64,000 nucleotides of DNA from an uncultured Acidimicrobiaceae bacterium (GTDB lineage: Bacteria > Actinomycetota > Acidimicrobiia > Acidimicrobiales > Palsa-688). Positions 2,001 to 39,517 of the stretch are shown piece by piece. The position numbers and the translations under genes are program-made. The stretch is taken from contig CAVSOT010000007.1 of the NCBI GenBank assembly GCA_963729695.1, forward strand, positions 425,332 to 489,331. Reading direction: 5' to 3'. Within the stretch, counting starts at the first letter, position 1; each line of letters opens with the position of its first letter. Below the pieces are notes generated by a model. That model was not told the DNA's origin, made no database searches, and saw only the letters and a list, made by a program, of their open reading frames with translations.

Positions 2001-3353
2001 GTGACCGCCCCCACTTCGCTGGAGGAAATTGCCGACGGCCTGGTGGCCGTGGTCAGGAGCAGTTGCCCGACGTGCGTGACCGTGGCTCCGGTTCTCGCCG
2101 AGCTGGCGTCGGAAGCCTCGTTGACGGTCATCAGCCAGGACGACCCGGGATTCCCTGACGGGGTCGAGTCGGTGGTCCTCGACCAGGATCTCCACCTGTC
2201 CTGGCTTCTCGGCATCGAGACGGTGCCAACCCTCCTCCGCGTAGCCGACGGGCGCGAGTCGGCCCGAGAGATCGGCTGGCACCGCAGCCGTTGGGAGACC
2301 CTCAGCGGCGTCCGGGAGTTGGGTGAGGGGCTTCCCGAACAGCGGCCGGGATGCGGCTCGCTGTCGGTCGAACCCGGTGTGGCCGAGGCGCTCGACGTCC
2401 GCCACCGACGCCAGATCATGCGCTCCCGTCGAGTCGAGTTCTCCGTGCTGGAGGACGAGTTCGAGGGCATGTGGGCGCGAGGGTGGACCGATGGGTTGCC
2501 GGTGGTGCCGCCAACCGAGGCGCGGGTCTTGGCCATGCTGGACGGCGCCCGGCGCGACCCCGACGAGGTGGTCGGGATCGTGGCGCCGAATCTGGTCCCG
2601 GTGACGGTGGAGAAGGTCGCGGTCAACGCAGTAATGGCCGGATGCCGTCCCGAGTACCTTCCCGTCGTCCTCGCTGCGGTCGAAGCCACCTGCACTGAAG
2701 GGTTCAACATCCACGGGGTGTTGGCCACCACGTTCTCCGTGGGGCCGGTGATCATCGTCAATGGTCCAGTGGCCCGCGCTATCGGTGTGAACAGCGGCGT
2801 CAACGTCCTGGGCCAGGGCAACCGGGCCAACTCGACCATCGGTCGGGCCCTTCAGCTGGTGGTTCGCAACGTCGGGGGCGGCCGTCCCGGCGGCGTCGAC
2901 CGAGCCACCCTCGGCAACCCCGGGAAGGTCGGTTTGTGTTTCTCAGAGGACGAGGAGGGTTCGCCTTGGGAACCGCTCTCGGTAGAGCGGGGAGTGCCCG
3001 ACGGAGTTTCCGCCGTCACCGTGTTCGCTGGAGGGGGGACGCACTCCATCTCCGACCAGACGGCCCGGACACCTGAAGATCTCAGCCGTACCCTGGCGTC
3101 CGGGTTGCGATCGGTGGACACCCTGCTGCTGGTCTCGCCTGATCACGGCCGGACCTTTCGGGACGGTGGCTGGTCGAAGGCCCGGTTGCGCGCCGCACTC
3201 GAACAGCCGAACCAGCGAACCGGGATGCTCGGAAGCCGAGAGTTGCTGATCGTGTATGCGGGTGGGGGCGCCGGGCTCTTCTCCGGCGCCATGGAGGGCT
3301 GGGGTGGTGGCCCCATGGGTAGCATGCACGTGACACGGGAGGTTCGACCATGA
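2001..3353 (+). CDS. fusion protein: N-terminal thioredoxin-fold domain (CPTC) + uncharacterised ~300-aa 'domain X'
   Basis: GTG start preceded by AAGGAAG. SSCPTCVTVAPVL...ETVPTLL is a thioredoxin-like CxxC fold. The C-terminal part (about 2433..3353) has two paralogs in the window (about 30410..31425 and 32109..33189) sharing GLPxxPPT, AGCxPEY, NGP, RANxTxGRA and FCFxED motifs. Confidence 0.85.
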   Translation: MTAPTSLEEIADGLVAVVRSSCPTCVTVAPVLAELASEASLTVISQDDPGFPDGVESVVLDQDLHLSWLLGIETVPTLLRVADGRESAREIGWHRSRWETLSGVRELGEGLPEQRPGCGSLSVEPGVAEALDVRHRRQIMRSRRVEFSVLEDEFEGMWARGWTDGLPVVPPTEARVLAMLDGARRDPDEVVGIVAPNLVPVTVEKVAVNAVMAGCRPEYLPVVLAAVEATCTEGFNIHGVLATTFSVGPVIIVNGPVARAIGVNSGVNVLGQGNRANSTIGRALQLVVRNVGGGRPGGVDRATLGNPGKVGLCFSEDEEGSPWEPLSVERGVPDGVSAVTVFAGGGTHSISDQTARTPEDLSRTLASGLRSVDTLLLVSPDHGRTFRDGGWSKARLRAALEQPNQRTGMLGSRELLIVYAGGGAGLFSGAMEGWGGGPMGSMHVTREVRP

Positions 3354-3395
3354 CGCCGATCGAGATGCCGTCGGGCGGGTATCGCGCTGAGTACC

Positions 3396-3923
3396 TTGCT
3401 GGACCCGACGGCTGAGCTCGCCCCCGCGAGCAGGGCGCTCGTCTCCCGCCCTGCTGGCCTCGACGGGTTGACCATCGGTCTGCTCGACATCTCCAAGCCC
3501 AGAGGTGACGTGTTCCTCGACCAGCTCGCGCAGCGACTGCACGGGCGGGGATGGAGCGTCCTGCGCTATGCAAAACCAACCTTCACCAAGCCGGCGCCCA
3601 TCGATCTTCGCCAGGAGATCGCCGTCCAGTGCGACGTGGTGATCGAGGCCCTCGCCGATTGAGGCAGCTGTACGTCGTGCAGTGTGCACGACATCGCCGA
3701 CCTGGACTCGCGAGGCGTGCCAGGCGTGTTTGTGGCGTCCCGCGAGTTCATCCCTGCCGCCGCGGCCCAGTCCGAAGGTCTCGGTTTTCCCGCCGCCGCG
3801 GTCTTTGTCGACCACCCGATACAGGATCGCACCGACGAGGAGGTCAGAGCCCTGGCTGACGGCGCCCTGCCTGCGCTTCTCGCCGCGCTCACCAACCCTG
3901 CGCCCACCCGCAGCGCGGACTGA
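3396..3923 (+). CDS. UGSC-motif selenoprotein (TGA 3660-3662 read as selenocysteine); function unknown
   Basis: ORF-track fragments 3396..3662 and 3684..3923 share one frame and are split only by TGA. Read-through gives ...VVIEALAD-U-GSCTSCSVHDIADL.... A paralog with the same TGA context lies at 31761, a hairpin lies 11 nt downstream, and the sel genes are in the window. The start is uncertain (TTG 3396, or ancestral ATG 3350 in another frame). Confidence 0.8.
3674..3692 (+). promoter_or_regulatory. SECIS-like RNA hairpin downstream of Sec codon
   Basis: Perfect inverted repeat GTCGTGCA-GTG-TGCACGAC starting 11 nt after TGA 3660-3662. The apical region contains GU. Confidence 0.55.
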
Positions 3924-21945: not shown

Positions 21946-23070
21946 GTGCAACCGGGACAACGAGTTGGCGTGCACGGCACCGACCCCACCCTGCGTGTGC
22001 ACCTGCCGGCGTGGGCGCGCCAGCAGGGCCATCGCGTCGAGGCCGACACCGGGATGGGTGACCCACGGCCGGGTGACGCGCCACTTGTCGTCGTCCGGGG
22101 GGAGGCTGAGGAGCTTCGCTGGGCGGGGGCGGAGCGAGCGGGCAGCCCGGCCGGGGTCGTCGATCGCGCCCCTGCAAGCTGGGGATTCGCTGCTCGTGGT
22201 GCCCTGGTCGAGCAGGGGGGACCGCCCCTGACCGGTGCTGGCCTCGACCGAGCCGACGTCGTGTGGAGTGACCAAGCCCCGAAGCTCTACGCCCAGGCCG
22301 TGGCCAATCAATGGAATCCGGCCACCGCCATCGACTGGACGCCGCCCAGCCTCCCCCGGGAGGTCGAGCTGGCGGTCGTGCAAACCATGACCTACCTGGT
22401 CGAAAACGAACAGGCCGCCCTGGCGGTTCCTGCTCGTTTCATTGGTCGCATCCACCCGCACTTCCGCGAGGTCATCGGCTTTCTGGCCACCCAGCTGGCG
22501 GACGAAGCCCGTCACGTCGAAGTCTTCACCCGACGAGCGGCTCTATGTGGACACTCGCCGGGCATCTCGGGAGCAGGAGGGAGAGCGTCGTTGCAAACCC
22601 TGCTTGACGAACCTGACTGGGCCAACGCGTCCTTCCTGCTCTCCGTCCTGGGGGAGGGGAGCTTCCTCTCGCTGCTGTCGTTCCTGTCCGAGCACGCACC
22701 GGATGCGGTCACGGCTCGCATATCGCAGCTGGCCTTGGCCGATGAGGCTCGCCATGTGGCGTTCGCCCTCGGGCACCTGGGCGAGCACGTCGCCCAGACG
22801 GCCAACCAGCGGGATCGCCTCGCCGCTGCCGTCGGGCGCCGGCACGGCGCCCTGGTCAGCACCGCCGGTCTGGCTCCATCGGTGCACGACAGCCTGGTCG
22901 TCCTCGCGGCCGGCGCCTGGACACCGGAAGCCATCCAGGCCGGATGGGACGCGGTCCACGCTTTGCAGGCTGATATGGACGAAGGCCGGCGGCACCGCCT
23001 GGCTCGACTCGGCTTCGGCGATCGAGAAGCCGCCGAGCTCTCGGCGCTCCACACGACGAACTTCATGTAG
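21946..23070 (+). CDS. ferritin-like di-iron protein with degenerate TusA-like N-terminal domain
   Basis: Two ExxH motifs (LADEARHVEVF, LADEARHVAFA). The N-terminal part resembles TusA (GQRVGVHGTDPTLRVHLPAWARQQGH), and that similarity continues upstream of GTG 21946 with no canonical start codon. Confidence 0.7.
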   Translation: MQPGQRVGVHGTDPTLRVHLPAWARQQGHRVEADTGMGDPRPGDAPLVVVRGEAEELRWAGAERAGSPAGVVDRAPASWGFAARGALVEQGGPPLTGAGLDRADVVWSDQAPKLYAQAVANQWNPATAIDWTPPSLPREVELAVVQTMTYLVENEQAALAVPARFIGRIHPHFREVIGFLATQLADEARHVEVFTRRAALCGHSPGISGAGGRASLQTLLDEPDWANASFLLSVLGEGSFLSLLSFLSEHAPDAVTARISQLALADEARHVAFALGHLGEHVAQTANQRDRLAAAVGRRHGALVSTAGLAPSVHDSLVVLAAGAWTPEAIQAGWDAVHALQADMDEGRRHRLARLGFGDREAAELSALHTTNFM

Positions 23071-23122
23071 CGGCCTCCCCCAGGTCGCTGCCGTTCACCG
23101 GGCGGCTCGCGCATCGAACGAA

Positions 23123-23249
23123 GGCCGGGGCCGATCTCCAGGGCCGGGGCCGATCTCCAGGGCCGGGGCCGATCTCCAGGGCCGGGGCCGATCTCCAGGG
23201 CCGGGGCCGATCCCCAGGGCCGGGGCCGATCCCCAGGGCCGGGGCCGAC
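23123..23249. repeat. 19-bp tandem repeat, about 6.7 copies (GGCCGGGGCCGATCTCCAG)
   Basis: Read directly: four identical units, two GATCCCCAG variants and one truncated unit. Intergenic, between the ferritin-like gene and the Rieske oxygenase gene. Confidence 0.9.
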
Positions 23250-23363
23250 CGCCGAAGAGTCGACGGGACGGTCCTTGCGAGCGAACGCTTACTTGACCGT
23301 GATAATCCGCTCAGACTAGGCTTACCTCTGTAACCGCATTGATGCGTAAAGGGGGATTCCCTG

Positions 23364-29298: not shown

Positions 29299-31425
29299 GT
29301 GCACTCATCGTGGTTGACACCCGGCGGACCGTGTGAGACGGTGATGTTTGCTTTGAGCCGAGCAGGTAGTTCGTTGAGGACAACCGCTGTCGTCGGAGCC
29401 GGGGCCAGCGGCCTGTCGGCCGCCTGGCACGTGGCCCGTCGGGGTCATCACGTCATCCTGATCGACCATCAGGGGGCCGGGGGACAACTGTTGAACGTTG
29501 GCGTCATCGAGTCCGTTCCTGGTCTCGGGTCGTCGGTACGGGGGCCCGACCTGGTCGCTCGAATGGTGCAGCAGATGGATGAGCAGAAGATCGAGTGGCT
29601 GCACGAGCGGGCTGTCAACATCGGGCACCGGTCGAACCGGTTCCGGATCCTCACCGACGCGGGTTCCGAGGTCGTGGCCGACGCCGTCATCGTGGCAACC
29701 GGATCTTGGCACCGCCAACTCGGTGTTCCCGGCGAGGACGCCCTCGAGCACCGGGGCGTGTCCCACTGCGCCGTCTGTGACGGCCCGCTCTACCGGGATC
29801 GACCAGTAGCAGTGGTGGGTGGCGGCGACGCGGCCGCCGACGCCGCCGCCTACCTGGCCGGCATCTGCTCGCGGGTTCACCTCGTGCACCGAGCGGGTCG
29901 ACTCGAAGCGGTTGATGCCTTGTGTCGCCGGCTCTATGGGCTCCCCAACGTGGAGCATTGGCCCGACACGGAGGTGCGTCGCATCGGTGGGGACACAGCG
30001 GTCGAGGCGGTGGAGATCGAAGACGGCGCCGGGGGGAGGCGGAGCATCGAAGTAGCCGCTGTCTTCGTCGCCGTCGGGATGGATCCCGACGCCTCCTTGG
30101 TCGCCGGCCTCGCCCAGCTCGACCCCTCAGGATGCGTGGCGGTCGATGCCGGCCTGATGACAAACGTCCCGGGCCTGTTCGCCGTGGGAGCGGTCCGGGC
30201 GGGGACCTCCGGCCAGCTGGCGGGCTCCATCGGCGACGGTGTCGCCGCCGCCGCGGCCGCGGATGGGTGGCTTCGGTCCCAGCGCCCGCCGGCCGGTAGT
30301 CCAGGGTTGGCTCGTAGTCCAGGGTCGGCTCGTAGTCCAGGGTCGGCCCTTCGTCCGGGATGGGCCGGTGGTCCCGGATGGCCCGGCAACGCCACTCGCA
30401 CCCGTCGTCTCGACGATGGCTCGGACTACGTCGACTACGGCGACTTCTTCGACTCGATGGGCGAAGTCGGGGTCGGCGATGGATTGCCTCTTGTGCCGCC
30501 TACACCGGCGCGTTTCGACCGCTTCGCCACCGCGTTGGCGTGCGATCCCTACGAACTGCTGCCGGCTCTTCCGGACGGCCGCCGGCTGCGCTACGCCGAC
30601 CTCGTCATGTCCGCCATCCTGGCCGGCTGCCGCCCGGAGTACATGCCGGTGGTCGCGGCCGCAGCCGAGTCGCTGTTGACGGATCTCGCCGGCCGGCAAC
30701 CGCGACTGCCCGACTCCGTTGCGGTCGTCCTCGTCAACGGTCCCGTCCGGGAGACGATCGGCCTCAATTGCTCGGACGGCCTCTTCGGGCCGGGGTGGCG
30801 AGCCAATGCCACCATCGGGCGGGCCGTTCAGCTGTTCCTCCGTGGGCAGGTCGACGATCGCCGGCCGACCGGGTTCGGCGACGCCGGACAGATCGCGTTC
30901 TGCTTCGGAGAAGATGAACAAACGTCGCCCTGGACGCCACTGCACGTCCAGCGGGGATTAGATCCAGGCCAGAGCACGGCCACCGTTTTCGTGGCCAACG
31001 CCTACCGGCACATGCTGGACCGTCAGAACACTGATGCGGACGGGATCATCGAGTACCTGCGGCTGTTCCTTCGCGGCCGGGCCTCAGGAACCCGACTGTT
31101 CGGCGACGTCCCGCTAACCCTGATGGTCGTCATCGGTCGGGAGCTGCGGCGCCAGTTGGCCCCGCGCTATTCGAAGGCGGAGCTATCCGAACGGCTGTTC
31201 GACCTTCTGACCCTGGACGACGGGACGCCCTTTGGGCCAATCGACGTGCCCGATGCCGACCACGTTCTGATCGTCGGGGCGGGAGGCGTCGCCACCCCCG
31301 CACTATGGTGCTTTGTCGCGGCGGCGTCGCCGCCCGTTACCGTGCCGGTCCGCGATCCGGGACTCGCCTTCGGATCTGGGCCGCCGCCACGAGCTCGAGA
31401 GATGAGCCAAGGAGAAGCGAGATGA
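29299..31425 (+). CDS. fusion protein: thioredoxin-reductase-like flavoprotein (CAVC) + Pro/Gly-rich repeat linker + domain X
   Basis: VVGAGASGLSAAWHVARRG (FAD GxGxxG), GVSHCAVCDGPLY (TrxB-type redox disulfide), VVGGGDAAADAA (NADPH site) and GLFAVGAV. The C-terminal DGLPLVPPTPAR...LAGCRPEYMPVV...VNGPV...WRANATIGRA...FCFGEDEQ is domain X. Start may be ATG 29344. Confidence 0.85.
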   Translation: MHSSWLTPGGPCETVMFALSRAGSSLRTTAVVGAGASGLSAAWHVARRGHHVILIDHQGAGGQLLNVGVIESVPGLGSSVRGPDLVARMVQQMDEQKIEWLHERAVNIGHRSNRFRILTDAGSEVVADAVIVATGSWHRQLGVPGEDALEHRGVSHCAVCDGPLYRDRPVAVVGGGDAAADAAAYLAGICSRVHLVHRAGRLEAVDALCRRLYGLPNVEHWPDTEVRRIGGDTAVEAVEIEDGAGGRRSIEVAAVFVAVGMDPDASLVAGLAQLDPSGCVAVDAGLMTNVPGLFAVGAVRAGTSGQLAGSIGDGVAAAAAADGWLRSQRPPAGSPGLARSPGSARSPGSALRPGWAGGPGWPGNATRTRRLDDGSDYVDYGDFFDSMGEVGVGDGLPLVPPTPARFDRFATALACDPYELLPALPDGRRLRYADLVMSAILAGCRPEYMPVVAAAAESLLTDLAGRQPRLPDSVAVVLVNGPVRETIGLNCSDGLFGPGWRANATIGRAVQLFLRGQVDDRRPTGFGDAGQIAFCFGEDEQTSPWTPLHVQRGLDPGQSTATVFVANAYRHMLDRQNTDADGIIEYLRLFLRGRASGTRLFGDVPLTLMVVIGRELRRQLAPRYSKAELSERLFDLLTLDDGTPFGPIDVPDADHVLIVGAGGVATPALWCFVAAASPPVTVPVRDPGLAFGSGPPPRAREMSQGEAR
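30296..30385 (+). repeat. in-frame 18-nt (6-aa) tandem repeat, 5 diverging copies, forming the inter-domain linker
   Basis: GTAGTCCAGGGTTGGCTC / GTAGTCCAGGGTCGGCTC / GTAGTCCAGGGTCGGCCC / TTCGTCCGGGATGGGCCG / GTGGTCCCGGATGGCCCG, encoding GSPGLARSPGSARSPGSALRPGWAGGPGWPG. Confidence 0.7.
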
Positions 31426-32112
31426 ACCCTCTGGTGCGTCCGGTGAACGTTCGAAACGAGGTCGGAGTGGTGTGCGACCCGCTCGCTCCCTTGCCGGCCG
31501 GCGATGGCCGCGCCGAGCGGACCGTTGCCTCCCGGCCCTCGTCGCTCGACGGCAAGGTGCTCGCCGTGATCGACAACGGGATGGGCCAGCAAGCTCCAGG
31601 ACTGGGTTTCGGAGAGGTCTTGGTCCGGAAGCTGAAGGAGGTGGCCGACATTGCCGATGTCATCTACGTTCGCAAGGACGCGGTCAACGTCCCCCCTCGC
31701 CCAGAGGACTGGATGGAGATATGCCGTCGTGGCGACGTCGGTCTGGCCCTCTACGGCGCTTGAGGGAGTTGCAGCTCGCGCAGTTTCGCGCGACGCCATA
31801 GAGCTCGAGTGGGCTGGCATACCGGCAGTAGCGGTGGTGCACGAGGCGCTGGCCGGCTCGGCCGACGCCATGAGGTTGATGTCGGGGATCCCGCACTATC
31901 CGTTTCTCGAGGTCAACTTCCCGTTACCCCCGGTCGGCCCGTGGACCGTCGAGCAGGTTGAGGCTGTGTGCGACGAGCTGCTCCCCGGAGTGATCGAACA
32001 ATTGACCCACGACATCGCCGGGCCCGCGGCGCGTGACCAGCAGTCCGCCCCTGCGCTGGTCCCTGCCGGTGATGCCGTCGCAGAGGATCGGCCGAGGGCC
32101 CCGGCGCCGTGA
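31422..32112 (+). pseudogene. UGSC-motif (seleno)protein paralog; needs TGA 31761 recoding and a +1 frame correction near 31779 (pseudogene or assembly indel)
   Basis: ATG 31422 overlaps the upstream stop (ATGA). Frame 0 gives ...DVGLALYGA-TGA-GSCSS. The homologous continuation AVSRDAIELEWAGIPAVAVVHEAL...PFLEVNFP is in the +1 frame through TGA 32110-32112. The span is 3n+1 nt. Confidence 0.6.
31776..31793 (+). promoter_or_regulatory. SECIS-like hairpin downstream of second in-frame TGA
   Basis: TCGCGC-AGTTTC-GCGCGA, starting 12 nt after TGA 31761-31763. The loop contains GU. Confidence 0.4.
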
Positions 32113-33189
32113 CAGCCGGCGGTCAGACCCGGACGTTCGCCGATTATGACGATTTCTTCGATGACTTTGTCGAGCGCGGCGCTACGGATGGGCTTCCCAT
32201 CATCCCCCCGACCCCAGCCCGAGTGGACGCTGCTCTGGCCGCGGCCGGGCTGGATGGACGCGAAGTGTTGGGGGAGATTCCCACCCGGGATGTCGTGGTG
32301 GACGCCCGGCGGGTCGCGATCAACGCAGTCATGGCGGGGTGCTTGCCCGAGTACATGCCTGTCGTGGCGGCCGCGGTGCGAGCGTGGACGCATCCGCTGG
32401 CCAATGGGCACGGCGTCACCGGGAGCCTCGCCGGGCCGACCAATCCCATCATCATCAATGGTCCCATCGCGACGGAGCTCGGGTTCAACGGTGGGGCGGG
32501 GTGCTTCGGGCCGGGCTGGCGAGCCAATGCCACGGTGGGACGAGCACTTCGTCTGATCGTCAGGAACGTCGCTCTGTCGATACCCGGCTTCGCCGATCGC
32601 GCCGCCTACTCCCAGCCTGGGCGCTTCACGTTCTGCTTCTGCGAAGACCAACAATCGACCGTCTGGAACCCACTCCACGTCGAGCGCGGCTACCGCCCCG
32701 AGGACAGCGTGGCAAGCGTGCATTCGAACACGGACATCTTCACCTATCGCAGCGAGGAGCCCGACCCGGAGGGCCTCCTCGACGGCCTCGTGACCCTCGC
32801 TCGGGCTCGTCCGGTCCAGAAGGAGGACTTCGTGGGCCAGTGGCGCAGCGTGGTCATCGGTAATTGGACCGGATCACCGCGACGTCCTGGAGCGCAACGG
32901 ATGGTCGAAGGCAGCTGTCCGCGAGTATTTGCATCCTCGGTTGACGATGCCGGACACGTTCGAGCCGGGCGCTCGGACCGTCTGGGGTAGCCAACCGACG
33001 GGAAGCCTGGGTGAGTACTCGTTCTATATCCCGAACGCCGACAACGTCCTCCTCGTTGCCGCCGGGGGGAGGTCGGCCTTCCAATCTGTCGTTTTGTACC
33101 CCCACGTGTCCAGCACCGTCTCCGCCGAGGTCACCTTCGACGGTTCGCGCGGCCGGTTGGTCCCCGACGACAGCATCGTGTGCGGTTGA
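32109..33189 (+). pseudogene. stand-alone domain-X paralog with +1 frame discontinuity at about 32862 (pseudogene or assembly indel)
   Basis: GTG 32109 overlaps the upstream stop (GTGA). Frame 0 carries DGLPIIPPTPAR...MAGCLPEYMPVV...INGPI...WRANATVGRA...FCFCEDQQ...WRSVVIG. The homologous C-terminus (IGPDHRDVLERNGWSKAAV...LLVAAGG) continues in the +1 frame to 33189. The span is 3n+1 nt. Confidence 0.6.
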
Positions 33190-33236
33190 GGCGCCCTGGC
33201 TTTTCTTTGGGGAGGTCAGGGTTGTTGGGCGGGCGG

Positions 33237-33865: not shown

Positions 33866-34870
33866 TCAGTCGAGCGCGACCATGGGCGGTCCGGGCCCGA
33901 CCTCTCCAATCTCCCACCACCCGTTTCCGGCCAGGACCCCAGCGTCGTCGGGATGGACCGAGACGAGGAGTCCTCCCGAGGTTTGGGGGTCGATGGCCAG
34001 AGCCTCCAGGCTGGGTTCGGCCGCCGACGACAGATGGCCCTGCAAGTAGGCCCGGTTTCGGGCATCACCGCCCGTGCGCACCCCGGCCGTGGCGGCGCGC
34101 TTGGCCCCCGGATACAGAGGGAGGGCGGCCGAGTCGAACCGGATCGAGGCGCCTGACCTCTCGGCAATTTCCCAACCGTGACCAACCAGGCCGAACCCGG
34201 TCACGTCGGTGACTGCGTGCGCCGCCGGCCCGTAGTCTCGATCAGGAAGCTGCGCCAGTTGCTGCGCCGCCTTCCTGTTGAGCACTCGCATCTGCCCGAT
34301 CGTGGCCGTTTTCGAGCCTTCGTCGGTGCTGGCCAGCACGATGCCGGAGCCCAGCGGTTTGGAGAGGAGCAAGCGATCCCCCGCCAGGGCGCCGCCTTTG
34401 GTCCAGATCCGCTCGGGATCCACCAGCCCTTGGACAGCGAGGCCGAAGATCGGTTCGGCCGACCGGATCGTGTGGCCGCCGGCAATCGTCCCCCCGGCTT
34501 CGGCGACCACGGCGGCGGCCGCCTCCAGGATGGCTGCGATCGCATCTGGGGGGAATTCCTCGGGAAAGGCGGCAATGTTGAGAGCGGTGATCACCCGTCC
34601 TCCCATGGCGAATACGTCGCTGCAAGCGTTCGCGGCTGCGATGGCCCCGAAGTCGGCCGGATCGTCCACCAGGGGTGGGAAGAAGTCGGTGGTGGACACG
34701 ACCGCCAGTTCGGGCGATAGCCGGTACACAGCGGCGTCGTCGAAGGGGGCCAGACCGACGAGGAGATCAGCGTCCTCGGTCCCGGCGACCAGGTCCACCA
34801 GCCCGCTCAACGCGGCGCCGCCCCATTTGGCCGCGCACCCTCCACAGGATGTCCATTCGGTCAGTTTCAC
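33866..34870 (-). CDS. selD: selenide, water dikinase (selenophosphate synthetase), Cys-type
   Basis: LTEWTSCGGCAAKWGG N-terminal active-site loop followed by the AIR-synthase-like fold (DDAAVYRL..., DFFPPLVDDP, TDVTGFGLVGH). GTG 34870 overlaps the selA stop (GTGA). The longer ORF-track N-terminus overlaps selA and looks non-coding. Confidence 0.9.
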   Translation of the reverse strand: MKLTEWTSCGGCAAKWGGAALSGLVDLVAGTEDADLLVGLAPFDDAAVYRLSPELAVVSTTDFFPPLVDDPADFGAIAAANACSDVFAMGGRVITALNIAAFPEEFPPDAIAAILEAAAAVVAEAGGTIAGGHTIRSAEPIFGLAVQGLVDPERIWTKGGALAGDRLLLSKPLGSGIVLASTDEGSKTATIGQMRVLNRKAAQQLAQLPDRDYGPAAHAVTDVTGFGLVGHGWEIAERSGASIRFDSAALPLYPGAKRAATAGVRTGGDARNRAYLQGHLSSAAEPSLEALAIDPQTSGGLLVSVHPDDAGVLAGNGWWEIGEVGPGPPMVALD

Positions 34871-36180
34871 GGACCAGATCCTTCCGTTGGTGAGGGGGCC
34901 GCGTGGGCGGGCCCTGACAACGCCGCTCGTATCGCCTCGCCGAGGTCGCCGTCCTGGTGCTCGAAAACGGCGCGCATCTCGCAGAGGGTGCGGCCCTTTT
35001 CGACCCTGGGGATCACGGGAGGTTGCCAGCTGCGCAGGGGCGCGGAGATATCGCCTTCGATGGCCACGGCAACCGAGGGGATGAGCACGCCGGGGAGCGT
35101 TCCACCCCCCATGGGAGCCGCCGTATCGACCACCTCGCCGACAGCCAGGCGCTGTGCCCTTTGGCGGAGATCCGGCAACGGAGTCGTGGCCAGCTTCCAC
35201 AGCGGCACGGTGGACCCGGCGTCACGCCGCAGGTAGGCCAAAGCGACGTTCTGAAGTGCTTCCAGGACCAGGCCGCCCGGGCGGAGCACCCGGGCCAGCG
35301 GGTGCCGGCGGCACCTGTCCACCAGGGTGCTCGAACCGGCGATGATGCCGGCCTGCGGGCCGCCGAGCAGCTTGTCGCCGCTGAAGGTGATCAGGTCGGC
35401 TCCAGCCGACAGCGTCTGGCGGCACGCCGGTTCTCCCCCCAGCCAGTCTGGTGGACCGTCGGAGAGCCACGGGCAGGCCGCGTCCAGCAGCCCGGACCCG
35501 AGGTCGACCACCACCGGTGCTCCCAGCCCTTTGAGCTCCCGGACGGCGACCGACTCGGTGAAGCCACTGACGCGAAAGTTGGAGGTGTGGACCTTGAGCA
35601 CCAACGAGGTGAGAGGACCGATGGCCGCCTCGTAATCTCCTCGCTTGGTCCGGTTGGTGGTCCCAATCTCGACCAGCTGCGCACCCGAGGTCGCCAGGAT
35701 CTCCGGTATCCGGAATCCTCCGCCGATCTCGACGAGCTCTCCCCGGCTCACGATCACCTGGCCACCGCCACCGGCGAGCGCGGTGAGGGCGAGGAGGACG
35801 GCGGCCGCTCCGTTGTTGACCACCAGGGCCTCCTCGGCGCCGCACGCTTTGGCGATCAGGGTGGCGGCGTGCGCGGAGCGGTCGCCCCTGCTGCCGGCAT
35901 TGACGTCGAATTCGAGATTTGAGTACCCCGCCACGCGCTCGACGGGCAGCGGCGCTCTGCCGAGATTGGTGTGCAACAGCACCCCGGTTGCGTTGACGAG
36001 AGGCCGGAGGAGGCGCCGCCGGGTGTCGGCGGCTACGGCGGCCGCCCGTTGCAGGATGGTGTCCCCGTTGCCGTCCTCGCGGAGGACCGTCCTGGCCACG
36101 TCGACCAGAATCGGATGAGGCAGACCTGACGGCGCCAGCTGGCGGGCCAACGAGTCCACCGATGGTGGGCGGTGCGCCAC
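34867..36180 (-). CDS. selA: L-seryl-tRNA(Sec) selenium transferase
   Basis: VNATGVLLHTNLGRAPL, and the PLP-lysine motif FSGDKLLGGPQAG. Confidence 0.9.
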   Translation of the reverse strand: MAHRPPSVDSLARQLAPSGLPHPILVDVARTVLREDGNGDTILQRAAAVAADTRRRLLRPLVNATGVLLHTNLGRAPLPVERVAGYSNLEFDVNAGSRGDRSAHAATLIAKACGAEEALVVNNGAAAVLLALTALAGGGGQVIVSRGELVEIGGGFRIPEILATSGAQLVEIGTTNRTKRGDYEAAIGPLTSLVLKVHTSNFRVSGFTESVAVRELKGLGAPVVVDLGSGLLDAACPWLSDGPPDWLGGEPACRQTLSAGADLITFSGDKLLGGPQAGIIAGSSTLVDRCRRHPLARVLRPGGLVLEALQNVALAYLRRDAGSTVPLWKLATTPLPDLRQRAQRLAVGEVVDTAAPMGGGTLPGVLIPSVAVAIEGDISAPLRSWQPPVIPRVEKGRTLCEMRAVFEHQDGDLGEAIRAALSGPAHAAPSPTEGSGP

Positions 36181-36258
36181 GCCCGTAGGCTAGCCCTGAT
36201 GAGCATCGCCGACAGAGCCTGCATCCGCGTCGTAGTGGGGCGGGGCGGGCTGCTCCGG

Positions 36259-36351
36259 CGGAGGTGGACGGGAATCGAACCCGCCGCTGTGGGTGCGCCA
36301 CAGCCAACCGCTTTGAAGGCGGCGGAGTCCACCAGGTACTCGGACACCTCC
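36259..36351 (-). tRNA. selC: tRNA-Sec (anticodon UCA)
   Basis: The reverse complement reads GGAGGTGTCCGAGTACCTGGTGGACTCCGCCGCCTTCAAAGCGGTTGGCTGTGGCGCACCCACAGCGGCGGGTTCGATTCCCGTCCACCTCCG. It has a 7-bp acceptor (GGAGGTG/CACCTCC), anticodon loop CTTCAAA, a long variable arm (GCTGTGG-CGCAC-CCACAGC) and a 6-bp T-stem with loop TTCGATT, giving 13 stacked acceptor+T base pairs as in tRNA-Sec. It lies between selA and selB. Confidence 0.85.
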
Positions 36352-36452
36352 GCGTGGGAGTGTAACGACGGTCAAAAGCGGCCGGCAAGCCGGCGCAGGG
36401 GCCGTCAGCTCGACCATCAGGCGCGCCACGCGACCATCGCGGTCGAGGTCCT

Positions 36453-38183
36453 ATGGCGGTAATCGCGACAGCCGGTCACGTCGATCACGGGAAGTCGACA
36501 TTGGTATTGGCCTTGACCGGCGTCGATCCCGATCGTCTCCCTGAAGAGCAAACGAGAGGCATGACGATCGATCTGGGGTTCGCCCACACCACGCTGAAAT
36601 CGGGTCGACAGGTTTCTTTTATCGACGTTCCCGGACACGGGCGATTCGTGAAGAACATGTTGGCCGGTGTGACAGGAGTGGACGGCGTCCTTTTCGTCGT
36701 CGCCGCCACGGAAGGGTGGAAAGCCCAGTCGGAGGAGCATCTGGCCATATTGGAACTGACCGGCGCCCCGGCCGGGGTGGTGGCGTTCACCAAGGTTGCC
36801 GGAGTTCCACGAGCCCAGCTCGAGGCCGTGGTGGCGGACTGCCGCCGCTTTCTGTCTGGTTCTTTCCTCGCTGATGCGGAGATCGTTTTCGTCGATGTGC
36901 CGCACAACGTCGGACTGCCAGAGCTGCAGGATGCCCTCGACAGATTGGTCGGTAAGGTCGCTGCGCCAGTGGACTGCCGGCGGCCCAGACTGTGGATCGA
37001 CCGTTCCTTTTCCGTTCGGGGGACTGGGACCGTGGTGACGGGGACACTCAACGATGGGCCGCTCGCGGTAGGGGACATCGTCGCCGTGCAGCCGGGGCGT
37101 CGCCCCGTGCGGATCCGGGGCCTCCAGAGCAACGGTCGCCCGCTCTCGGACGCGTCGCCGGGCTGTCGGCTGGCGGTCAACCTGGCGGATACGGCGGTGA
37201 CCGAGGTGCGTCGCGGTCAGGCCGTGGTGCGACCCGACGAGTGGCATCTGACGCGGACGTTCGACGCCTCCCTCCAGGTGCTGCGGTCGGTCGCCCACGA
37301 GATTTCCCAGAAGGGCGCCTTCACGGTCCACATCGGCACGTCTGCGGTTCCGGTCCGGATCCGCGTGATCGGCGAGGAAACCCACCTGGGAGCTGGCGAG
37401 GAAGGATTCGTTCGGGTGTGGATGCAAAGGGGCTCCACCCTTCCGTTGGTACCCGGTGACCGGTACATCCTTCGGGAAGCCGGCCGAGCCGAAACGGTCG
37501 GAGGTGGCGAGGTCCTCGATGTCGATCCGTTGCTGGGCGCCAAACGGGCGATGCCTTCGAAATCGGCAGAGCGGGTGGTCAGCGAGCGCGGCTGGGTGGA
37601 CGTGGACGAGCTGCAACGGCTGACCGGGCAGACGCTGGCGCCCAACGCCGGCCGGTGGGTCGTGGACCCCGCCGTGCTGGCTGCCCAGCGGGAAGACCTG
37701 AAGGCCAGGTGTCGGGCGGCCGGTCGGAGCGGTTTGGACACGGCCACCCTGGATGACCTGCAGCGTGCCATTCTCGACTTGGGCCTCGACGGTATCCGCG
37801 TGGCGCATGGACGAGCGGTTGACGAGTCCTCCTCGGAGGAGCTCAGCACGGATGAAACCCGGGTGCTCCGCATTCTCGAGTCGAGTCCCTGGGACCCCCC
37901 GGATCTGCCGCTCGGAGACAGAGGGGCCTTGCGGCGGCTGCAACGCCTGGGACTCGTCGTGGAGTCCGAGAGCATCTGGTTTGCCACCTCAGCGGTGGAA
38001 AAGGCCATGGCGGTGATCGTCGGGCTCGTCCGGGATCACCAGGAGGGATTCACCGTTGCCCAATTTCGCAGTGCGCTCGGCACGAGTCGCAAATTTGCCC
38101 TGCCGCTCCTGCGTTATGCAGATACCGCAGGCCTCACCAAACGCGAGGGTGATTTCCGGAAGCTGAGGCATACCGAAAGTTGA
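36453..38183 (+). CDS. selB: selenocysteine-specific translation elongation factor
   Basis: G-domain AGHVDHGKSTL, DVPGH and a C-terminal winged-helix extension. 576 aa. Divergent from tRNA-Sec/selA. Confidence 0.9.
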   Translation: MAVIATAGHVDHGKSTLVLALTGVDPDRLPEEQTRGMTIDLGFAHTTLKSGRQVSFIDVPGHGRFVKNMLAGVTGVDGVLFVVAATEGWKAQSEEHLAILELTGAPAGVVAFTKVAGVPRAQLEAVVADCRRFLSGSFLADAEIVFVDVPHNVGLPELQDALDRLVGKVAAPVDCRRPRLWIDRSFSVRGTGTVVTGTLNDGPLAVGDIVAVQPGRRPVRIRGLQSNGRPLSDASPGCRLAVNLADTAVTEVRRGQAVVRPDEWHLTRTFDASLQVLRSVAHEISQKGAFTVHIGTSAVPVRIRVIGEETHLGAGEEGFVRVWMQRGSTLPLVPGDRYILREAGRAETVGGGEVLDVDPLLGAKRAMPSKSAERVVSERGWVDVDELQRLTGQTLAPNAGRWVVDPAVLAAQREDLKARCRAAGRSGLDTATLDDLQRAILDLGLDGIRVAHGRAVDESSSEELSTDETRVLRILESSPWDPPDLPLGDRGALRRLQRLGLVVESESIWFATSAVEKAMAVIVGLVRDHQEGFTVAQFRSALGTSRKFALPLLRYADTAGLTKREGDFRKLRHTES

Positions 38184-38339
38184 GTTGAAGACGGTGCTGA
38201 TTTCGGAGCAAGGCTGGATCCGCCTTTCTGGTCGACCAGCCGAAAAGGTGGGCATCCCAGCGCCCGGCGTGAGCAGCCAAGGGCATGCCGCCTGACGCCG
38301 GGCTCGATTGACGGGGTGAGCGGGCGCTGCTAGCTTCGG

Positions 38340-38903
38340 ATGCAAAACCTTGACCTGTCGCGAGCCGGAAGGGATTCGAGCGTGAACTGGCTGGGACGTG
38401 AGGCCGATGAGGCCACGGAGCTCGAGCGGGTGTTGGGTCTTCTCCCGGACGCTCACGAAGCGGTGAGGGAGTTCTATTCCATCTTTTGGGTGGACGAGCT
38501 GGTCGATCCGGTCCTCCTCGAGTTGATCCGCCTCAGGGTGGCGATGTTGCACGGGGTCCAATCGGAGCTCCTTGTCCGCTATGACGTCGCCAGGGAGCGG
38601 GGCCTGACCGAGGAAAAGGTTGCCGTTCTGTCGTCGTGGCCGACGTCGCCGCTCTTTACCGAGCTCGAGCGCCGGGTGCTGGGCCTGACCGAGCAATTCG
38701 TGATGGACCCCCATGGCGTCACCGACGACGACGTGTTGCCGATCAAGGAGGCGCTGACATCGGCCGGGTTGGTTGCGCTCGTCAATGCCATGGCCCTGAT
38801 CGACCACTTGGACCGCGTTCGCGTGGCCTTTGAAATTCCGCCCGCCGACGGAGACCGGGTGCTGGTCGTGGCCGGGCCCGGCCCCACGTCGCCTTTGTAC
38901 TGA
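38340..38903 (+). CDS. carboxymuconolactone decarboxylase (AhpD-like) family protein, Cys-less
   Basis: AhpD-like helical pattern (LIRLRVAMLHGVQSELLV, where CxxC normally sits). The protein contains no cysteine. Confidence 0.7.
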   Translation: MQNLDLSRAGRDSSVNWLGREADEATELERVLGLLPDAHEAVREFYSIFWVDELVDPVLLELIRLRVAMLHGVQSELLVRYDVARERGLTEEKVAVLSSWPTSPLFTELERRVLGLTEQFVMDPHGVTDDDVLPIKEALTSAGLVALVNAMALIDHLDRVRVAFEIPPADGDRVLVVAGPGPTSPLY

Positions 38904-38926
38904 GCCCATCGACGAGGAGAAACCTG

Positions 38927-39517
38927 ATGACCGTTAGCTCTGATCCCGTAGCGACGAAAGAGCCCCGCAGGTACCGGTTGAGTCATACCGGGGAGTTGTT
39001 CCCGCTGGGTTTCAAGCCCGCCTCGTCCCCCCGCATCGACGCAGACGTCGAGAGCAACCCCTTGCCGACATGGGACGGTCAGCCCGGCTTGGCCAAAGCG
39101 TTCATGAAGCACGACGAGGCCGTGTTCTGCCGGGATGGGAGCGGCCTGATTCCCATGGACGTCAAGGAGCCCGTCCGTCTCCGCGTGGCCCGAGTCGGGG
39201 GCTGCAAGATCTGCAGCAACACTCGAAACGCGGTGGCGCGCGATCAGGGCGTCAGCGAAGAGATGCTCGACCAGGTCACGGATCACTACGAGGAGTCGGG
39301 GCTTACCGATTACCAGAAGGTGGCGCTTCGTTACGCCGATGCGATCCTGTTGTCGACGCCCCCGTCGGACGAGTTGAAGCGCGAGCTGCTGCAACACTTC
39401 ACGGTCGAGCAGATCGTCGAGCTCACTCTCTTTGTGAGCCAGTGCCGGGTGTTCGCTGCCGTCACGATCGTGGAAGGAATCCAGCCTGACGAGATGCCGG
39501 AGAAGTGGGTCCACTGA
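38927..39517 (+). CDS. carboxymuconolactone decarboxylase (AhpD-like) family protein with CxxC
   Basis: LRVARVGGCKICSNTRN (CxxC at the AhpD core position). Confidence 0.75.
   Translation: MTVSSDPVATKEPRRYRLSHTGELFPLGFKPASSPRIDADVESNPLPTWDGQPGLAKAFMKHDEAVFCRDGSGLIPMDVKEPVRLRVARVGGCKICSNTRNAVARDQGVSEEMLDQVTDHYEESGLTDYQKVALRYADAILLSTPPSDELKRELLQHFTVEQIVELTLFVSQCRVFAAVTIVEGIQPDEMPEKWVH

Follow-up and report, generated by a model that had tools for sequence, protein, structure and literature searches.

A divergent UGSC-family selenoprotein gene with a conserved SECIS hairpin and a one-nucleotide frame break that is probably an assembly artefact

The 64,000-nucleotide stretch analysed here (the window; G+C 66%) holds two UGSC genes, copy A and copy B. 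As judged from its sequence, copy B, with 229 codons, a single UGA-Sec codon and a canonical bacterial SECIS, is an ordinary selenoprotein gene of the UGSC family, and nothing in it is new beyond its divergent membership of the family. In this assembly the gene is interrupted by one extra base, which maps to an exact position within the conserved SECIS and is absent from two near-identical public sequences and from all relatives retrieved. From these comparisons we infer that the frame break is probably an assembly artefact, private to the window assembly.

A divergent UGSC gene divided between two frames

UGSC-containing proteins are a long-known, abundant family of prokaryotic selenoproteins with a UxxC motif, for which a Trx-like fold is presumed and no function has been assigned (PMC2398784, PMC9312934, PMC13188914). 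Copy B lies on the forward strand and begins at ATG 31422, which shares an ATGA overlap with the stop codon of the gene before it and has AAGGAG upstream at 31408-13. Frame 0 supplies the N-terminal part (31422..31760, 113 codons ahead of Sec) and reads ...GDVGLALYGA-TGA(31761-63)-GSCSSRSFARRHRARVGW..., with the next stop a TGA near 31960. The Sec codon and redox motif occupy 31761..31772 (TGA GGG AGT TGC, giving U-G-S-C). The C-terminal part (31788..32112) runs in the +1 frame from RDAIELEWAGIPAV... to the stop TGA 32110-12, which overlaps the GTG 32109 of the next gene; this frame is open over 31651..32112 and carries ...AVSRDAIELEWAGIPAVAVVHEAL.... The span 31422..32112 measures 691 nt, or 3n+1. 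A sequence-only reading of this DNA had described just such an arrangement, with TGA and GSCSS in frame 0, the homologous half in the +1 frame and a total length of 3n+1, and the sequence bears it out on each point.

Both halves match consecutive parts of the NCBIfam profile NF041046 (UGSC_fam), the N-terminal half at profile positions 22-74 and the C-terminal half at 77-147, so the break is real and not a chance resemblance. With the frame repaired after the near-identical sequence L062 (described below) and U replaced by C, copy B scores 116.7 bits against Pfam PF24696 (GA 25; profile 3-171/172) and 71 bits against NF041046, under the equivalog cutoff of 125. Passing the first model and missing the equivalog cutoff of the second marks copy B as a genuine but divergent family member; the PF24696 match and the U-G-S-C motif uphold its earlier description as a second UGSC selenoprotein gene. 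Copy A (3396..3922, forward strand) is intact, with TTG 3396, TGA 3660-62 and stop 3920-22, and scores 151 bits against NF041046 (cutoff 125) and 145.5 bits against PF24696.

Relatives were gathered from two sources. A scan of species-representative genomes yielded 61 loci with 62 UGSC genes (18 with TGA, 44 with TGC or TGT), and a scan of JGI metagenomes yielded 80 further UGSC genes, 9 with TGA. All 142 of the relatives fetched, 27 of them with TGA, encode [U/C]G[ST]C[ST]xRxxRD in a single frame and at constant spacing; in the ortholog comparison that the sequence-only reading had proposed as a check, a frame shift is required nowhere. The TGA GGG AGT TGC of copy B aligns with the CGSC/UGSC position both in these 142 genes and in six full-length Cys-type homologs of the repaired protein, which are 42-53% identical to it, all metagenomic and all PF24696 members, and which read CGSCSSRxVRDAIELEW. 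The closest relatives are MAGs of Acidimicrobiia/Actinomycetota and Dehalococcoidia. Another of the loci (L007) likewise has two Sec-type UGSC copies, so two copies per genome are not unusual.

Set against the UGSC family as described (PF24696; NF041046; Zhang & Gladyshev 2008, PMC2398784), copy B agrees in the alignment position of its U-G-S-C (UxxC) motif, in having both Cys and Sec homologs, in a SECIS right after the UGA and in an adjoining gene for an uncharacterised partner domain. It differs in lying on a divergent branch, its closest relatives being 42-53% identical, in an extra Ala/Pro-rich tail of ~30 residues and in the 1-nt insertion, which is found in this assembly only.

The surplus base and the SECIS hairpin

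Two near-identical public sequences of the same population were found by look-up of the exact 113-aa N-terminal fragment of copy B. L062 (ENA ERZ25039482 contig_101297, 66.5 kb) is 99.7% identical to window positions 21442-41763 (20.3 kb), and L063, a 1,672-bp Logan contig from run ERR11523669, matches 30533-32208. Each is more than 99.6% identical to the window, and the 113-aa N-terminal product is the same in all three. Look-ups with the C-terminal fragment of copy B and with the neighbouring glyoxalase gene returned these two assemblies and otherwise a contig longer than 1 Mb that is presumably the window's own source, and an exact-pattern scan of JGI metagenomes at the site, with 1-4 variable bases allowed, gave no match and no further population copies. 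Both sequences lack the surplus base and carry copy B as a single 690-nt frame of 229 codons with one TGA each. At the site L062 reads TTTGCGCGAC (S-L-R-D), giving ...UGSCSSRSLRDAIELEW..., and L063 reads TTTCCGCGAC (S-F-R-D), giving ...SFRDAIELEW.... The sequence-only reading had named a different base count here as the mark of a simple assembly error, and this is in effect what the two sequences contain: one base fewer, with the frame intact. A protein genuinely ending soon after GSCSS was rejected, since the C-terminal half is conserved and both L062 and L063 keep it in frame.

Three-way alignment places the surplus nucleotide, which shifts the frame by +1, at 31787 on the forward strand (C31787, or equivalently G31788). 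At 31784-31794 the window has TTTCGCGCGAC, L062 TTT-GCGCGAC and L063 TTTC-CGCGAC; over a longer stretch the three read CAGTTTCGCGCGAC, CAGTTT-GCGCGAC and CAGTTTC-CGCGAC. In the hairpin, this puts the base after the apical loop and just before the 3′ arm (GCGCGA, 31788-93). From the Arg codon (31779-81) to the Asp codon there are 10 nt in the window (AGTTTCGCGC) against 9 nt in the homologs, and from the TGA to the H/R-D anchor 27 nt in copy A against 28 nt in copy B, in agreement with the earlier count of exactly one nucleotide too many. That count had been assigned to TCGCGC at 31776-81, the 5′ arm; the alignment moves the extra base to 31787/31788, the junction of loop and 3′ arm, which keeps the break inside the SECIS-like hairpin as originally described. 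The alternative of a 2-nt deletion in place of a 1-nt insertion was rejected because all relatives have the shorter length. The inserted C duplicates no neighbouring base and is thus unlike the product of slippage.

On comparative grounds the hairpin (31776..31793, forward strand) is the real bacterial SECIS of the UGSC family, predicted to bind SelB and to direct Sec incorporation. It consists of the 5′ arm TCGCGC(A) at 31776-82, the loop GTT at 31783-85, T31786 closing the loop and the 3′ arm GCGCGA at 31788-93. Intact, it reads UCGCGCA-GUU-UGCGCGA; in the window a C follows the loop-closing U and the loop is widened to AGUUUC, while the six G-C pairs are kept. The fold energy is -12.8 kcal/mol for the window and -12.9 kcal/mol for the L062 reading; the L063 reading loses the top G-C pair and folds at -8.0 kcal/mol.

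All 27 of the Sec-type relatives share the helix NCGCGCA-GUN-UGCGCGN, with its start 15 nt past the UGA and fold energies from -9 to -15 kcal/mol. Across 16 distinct sequences six pairs are paired without exception and three pairs have changed on both sides: GC to CG in three sequences, and CG to UA in copy A and in one further locus (L052). The covariation score was attained in 0 of 500 column shuffles, and slid registers give none. The SECIS of copy A, GUCGUGCA-GUG-UGCACGAC at 3674-3692, folds at -12.4 kcal/mol. Over the same segment the mean hairpin energy is -13.0 kcal/mol in Sec-type genes versus -6.4 kcal/mol in the 44 Cys-type genes, and most Cys-type relatives have a weak hairpin or none. 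The loci (L001-L144) belong to Dehalococcoidia, Planctomycetota, Alphaproteobacteria and Actinomycetota. Across phyla the Sec-type SECIS has almost the same sequence, GCGCGCAGUAUGCGCGAC, whose translation is A/S-R-S-M-R-D; the Cys-type genes arrive at this peptide through different codons and have lost the hairpin.

The element resembles known bacterial SECIS hairpins (fdhF-type; a bSECISearch consensus is mentioned in PMC9312934) in being located within the coding sequence 15 nt after the UGA, in its G+C-rich upper stem of 6-7 bp maintained by compensatory changes, and in its small apical loop, which opens with G-U and has its G 22 nt from the U of UGA. Unlike these, the family sequence NCGCGCA-GUN-UGCGCGN also encodes S/A-R-S-M/L/V-R-D, and the window version contains the C inserted after the loop-closing U.

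Origin of the frame break

Over 20.3 kb, comparison of the window with L062 shows 20 substitutions and 16 indel events, and so many 1-nt indels in gene-dense DNA cannot all be biological. Indels were judged by a codon-position GC phase test, which discriminated better than ORF length in this high-GC DNA. By this test the window is self-consistent at 22015, 22945, 30076, 32315, 32360, 35435, 35936 and 39241; it is also correct at 34898, where it gives the classic GTGA overlap of the selA stop and the selD start. Overall the test favours the window at 8-9 of its indel differences with L062, and L062 is the consistent one at two sites only, 31787 and 32859. In the next gene, frame-damaging deletions in L063 abolish the conserved DGLP motif, and this noise limits the weight that L063 can be given.

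In L062 itself at least 9 indels break a reading frame within 20 kb. They split the thioredoxin-reductase fusion into 270 + 429 aa, fuse part of selA to selD and garble 45 nt of the partner gene. The position of several of these indels beside GCGC, CGCG or GATC motifs may point to methylation-linked errors in basecalling. The window and L062 also differ by a 3-nt in-frame indel in selB (36850-36852) and by a 19-nt indel near 23194, a direct-repeat-like CCAGGGCCGGGGCCGATC segment.

The second site is again a 1-nt insertion on the forward strand. At 32859-60 the window has GG and L062 a single G, and the gene downstream of copy B (32109..33189) is split in the window into ORFs 32109-32990 and 32929-33189, versus a single 359-aa protein in L062. 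The L062 reading at this place (VIVIGPDHRDVLERNGWSKAAVREYL; VIGPDHRDVLERNGWSKAAVREYL) matches the paralog encoded by 2001-3353 (SPDHGRTFRDGGWSKARLRAAL). Scanned for codon phase over its full 64 kb, the window has no unexplained frame break beyond 31787 and 32859. A frameshift search in the window flagged eight overlapping high-GC3 ORF pairs, among which 32859 is the only true break. In a Pfam scan of five unexplained pairs, two had distinct complete domains on each side and one had a complete domain on one side only, which identifies them as separate or spurious ORFs; Pfam gave no match for ORFs 36036-36371 (reverse strand) and 22391-23290. Two more flagged pairs are separate gene calls on L062.

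A probable assembly artefact as the cause of the break in copy B is supported by the site itself. Three assemblies write one dinucleotide in three ways (CG in the window, G in L062, C in L063), which suggests a hard-to-call or polymorphic site where one cause suffices; between genomes ~99.9% identical, independent mutations at a single site are a poor explanation. The insertion would then be a consensus or polishing error at such a G/C position, both alternatives having been written as CG. The true sequence would most likely be AGT TTG CGC GAC (S-L-R-D), as in L062, a reading that would restore the frame together with the stem of 7 bp and the loop of 3 nt seen in the family, and copy B would need no decoding beyond Sec insertion. 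The exact match of the L062 reading to the family SECIS (UCGCGCA-GUU-UGCGCGA) supports an artefact, and the 16 indels between the window and L062 in 20 kb, together with the DGLP deletions of L063, indicate that these assemblies do contain indel errors. Against this, the window assembly is otherwise clean, and L062 and L063 are noisy and may not be independent of the window's reads. A real insertion is the main competing account, and one we regard as unlikely: a very recent pseudogenisation in which C31787 and the G at 32859 inactivate copy B and its partner gene, the operon having become dispensable, for example through the intact copy A operon (2001-3922), with L062 and L063 as intact sister strains. 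It draws strength from the position of the only two detectable breaks in 64 kb, which are 1.07 kb apart in adjacent genes of one operon (a ~3% chance for two random errors), from the window being otherwise the more accurate assembly, from the intact paralogous operon inside the same window, and from a substitution density relative to L062 that is ~5-fold higher across 31239-33236, where 7 of the 20 differences fall in 2 kb. Raised local diversity, however, also predicts consensus errors, and the CG/G/C readings in three near-identical sequences would require repeated hits at one site. Neither gene is otherwise damaged: stops and an excess of non-conservative changes are absent, the one base is the only sign of decay in copy B, and the window's alleles are acceptable to the family. 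At residue 31997 the window has E, which is present in homologs, versus the G of L062, which is absent from them, and at 31890 it has I versus M in L062, both being present among homologs. L063 has the same alleles as the window at both 31890 and 31997 but not the surplus base, and the inserted C is not a slippage-type duplication.

Programmed +1 frameshifting coupled to Sec insertion, in which UGA is read as Sec and one nucleotide is skipped within the SECIS, is extremely improbable. Equally little credence is due to its biological counterpart, a strain whose genome truly contains the additional C and whose ribosomes, paused at the SelB/SECIS complex, shift by +1 and so complete the full-length UGSC protein. 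Only the bare geometry speaks for it: the break falls 24-26 nt after the UGA in a stable hairpin able to pause ribosomes and, as in frameshifting of the prfB/RF2 type, only one nucleotide need be skipped to obtain the full protein from the window. But the break is conserved in 0 of 142 family members, including the 27 Sec-type genes with the same hairpin, and is absent from both sequences that are more than 99.6% identical to the window; the extra base also distorts an otherwise invariant A-U-closed triloop. There is no slippery or hungry-codon motif, and the frame-0 AGU-UUC-GCG allows no +1 tRNA re-pairing. Direct reading of 31770-31800 (AGC UCG CGC AGU UUC GCG CGA) found no stop or rare A-site codon, and the sequence around the shift site contains no upstream SD-like stimulator. 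Copy B is thus unlike prfB/RF2 in shift site, slippery or hungry codon, SD stimulator and conservation alike. The sequence-only reading had ranked an assembly indel and recent pseudogenisation above programmed frameshifting; L062, L063 and the 142 relatives confirm that order, and frameshifting was set aside.

Operon context and significance

Copy B is flanked by genes for an uncharacterised domain of ~330 aa that occurs three times in the window, always on the forward strand and each time beside a UGSC gene (2001-3353, 29299-31425 and 32109-33189). One copy is fused to a thioredoxin-like N-terminus, another to a thioredoxin-reductase-like flavoprotein, and the remaining one stands by itself. 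The domain has no Pfam or NCBIfam match and carries the motifs DGLPxxPPT, AGCxPEYxPVV and GPGWRAN. The flavoprotein fusion is the gene immediately upstream of copy B (29299..31425, forward strand; TIGR01292, 1e-78), with Pyr_redox_2 on residues 29-324; the DGLPxxPPT and AGCxPEYxPVV motifs in its C-terminal part, as read by eye and not from a computed alignment, are common to the proteins of 2001-3353 and 32109-33189. Fusion of UGSC to a domain named 'Unknown_1' is on record (Zhang & Gladyshev 2008, PMC2398784), and the partner domain may be this same domain. The arrangement suggests a redox relay from NAD(P)H through the flavoprotein and the partner domain to UGSC.

A complete set of Sec genes lies 2-6 kb downstream of copy B: selD (33866-34871, reverse strand; Cys-type, ...TSCGGCAAK...), selA (34867-36180, reverse strand), whose stop overlaps the selD start as GTGA, tRNA-Sec (36257-36351, reverse strand) and selB (about 36453-38180, forward strand). 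With selB, selA, selD and tRNA-Sec encoded nearby, the Sec machinery is present. Directly downstream of selB are two adjacent CMD/AhpD-like genes on the forward strand (38334-38900 and 38834-39514), the second of which carries the Cys-type motif GGCKIC. The AhpD-like family is one of the known selenoprotein families; an in-frame TGA was not seen in either of these two genes.

An annotation of copy B would give a single UGSC selenoprotein gene of 229 codons and flag a suspected sequence error; should reads confirm the base, the entry would become a frameshifted pseudogene. If both frameshifts were real, a selenoprotein operon beside the sel genes would have been caught while being lost. The case also carries a caution, since a gene that seems to require a frame correction on top of UGA recoding tempts one to an exotic reading, and here the correction is private to one assembly. 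As by-products, the analysis provides a covariation-supported SECIS consensus for the UGSC family, an example of RNA structure constraining codon choice, and places UGSC genes beside thioredoxin-like and thioredoxin-reductase-like fusions of an uncharacterised domain, which hints at the family's redox partner.
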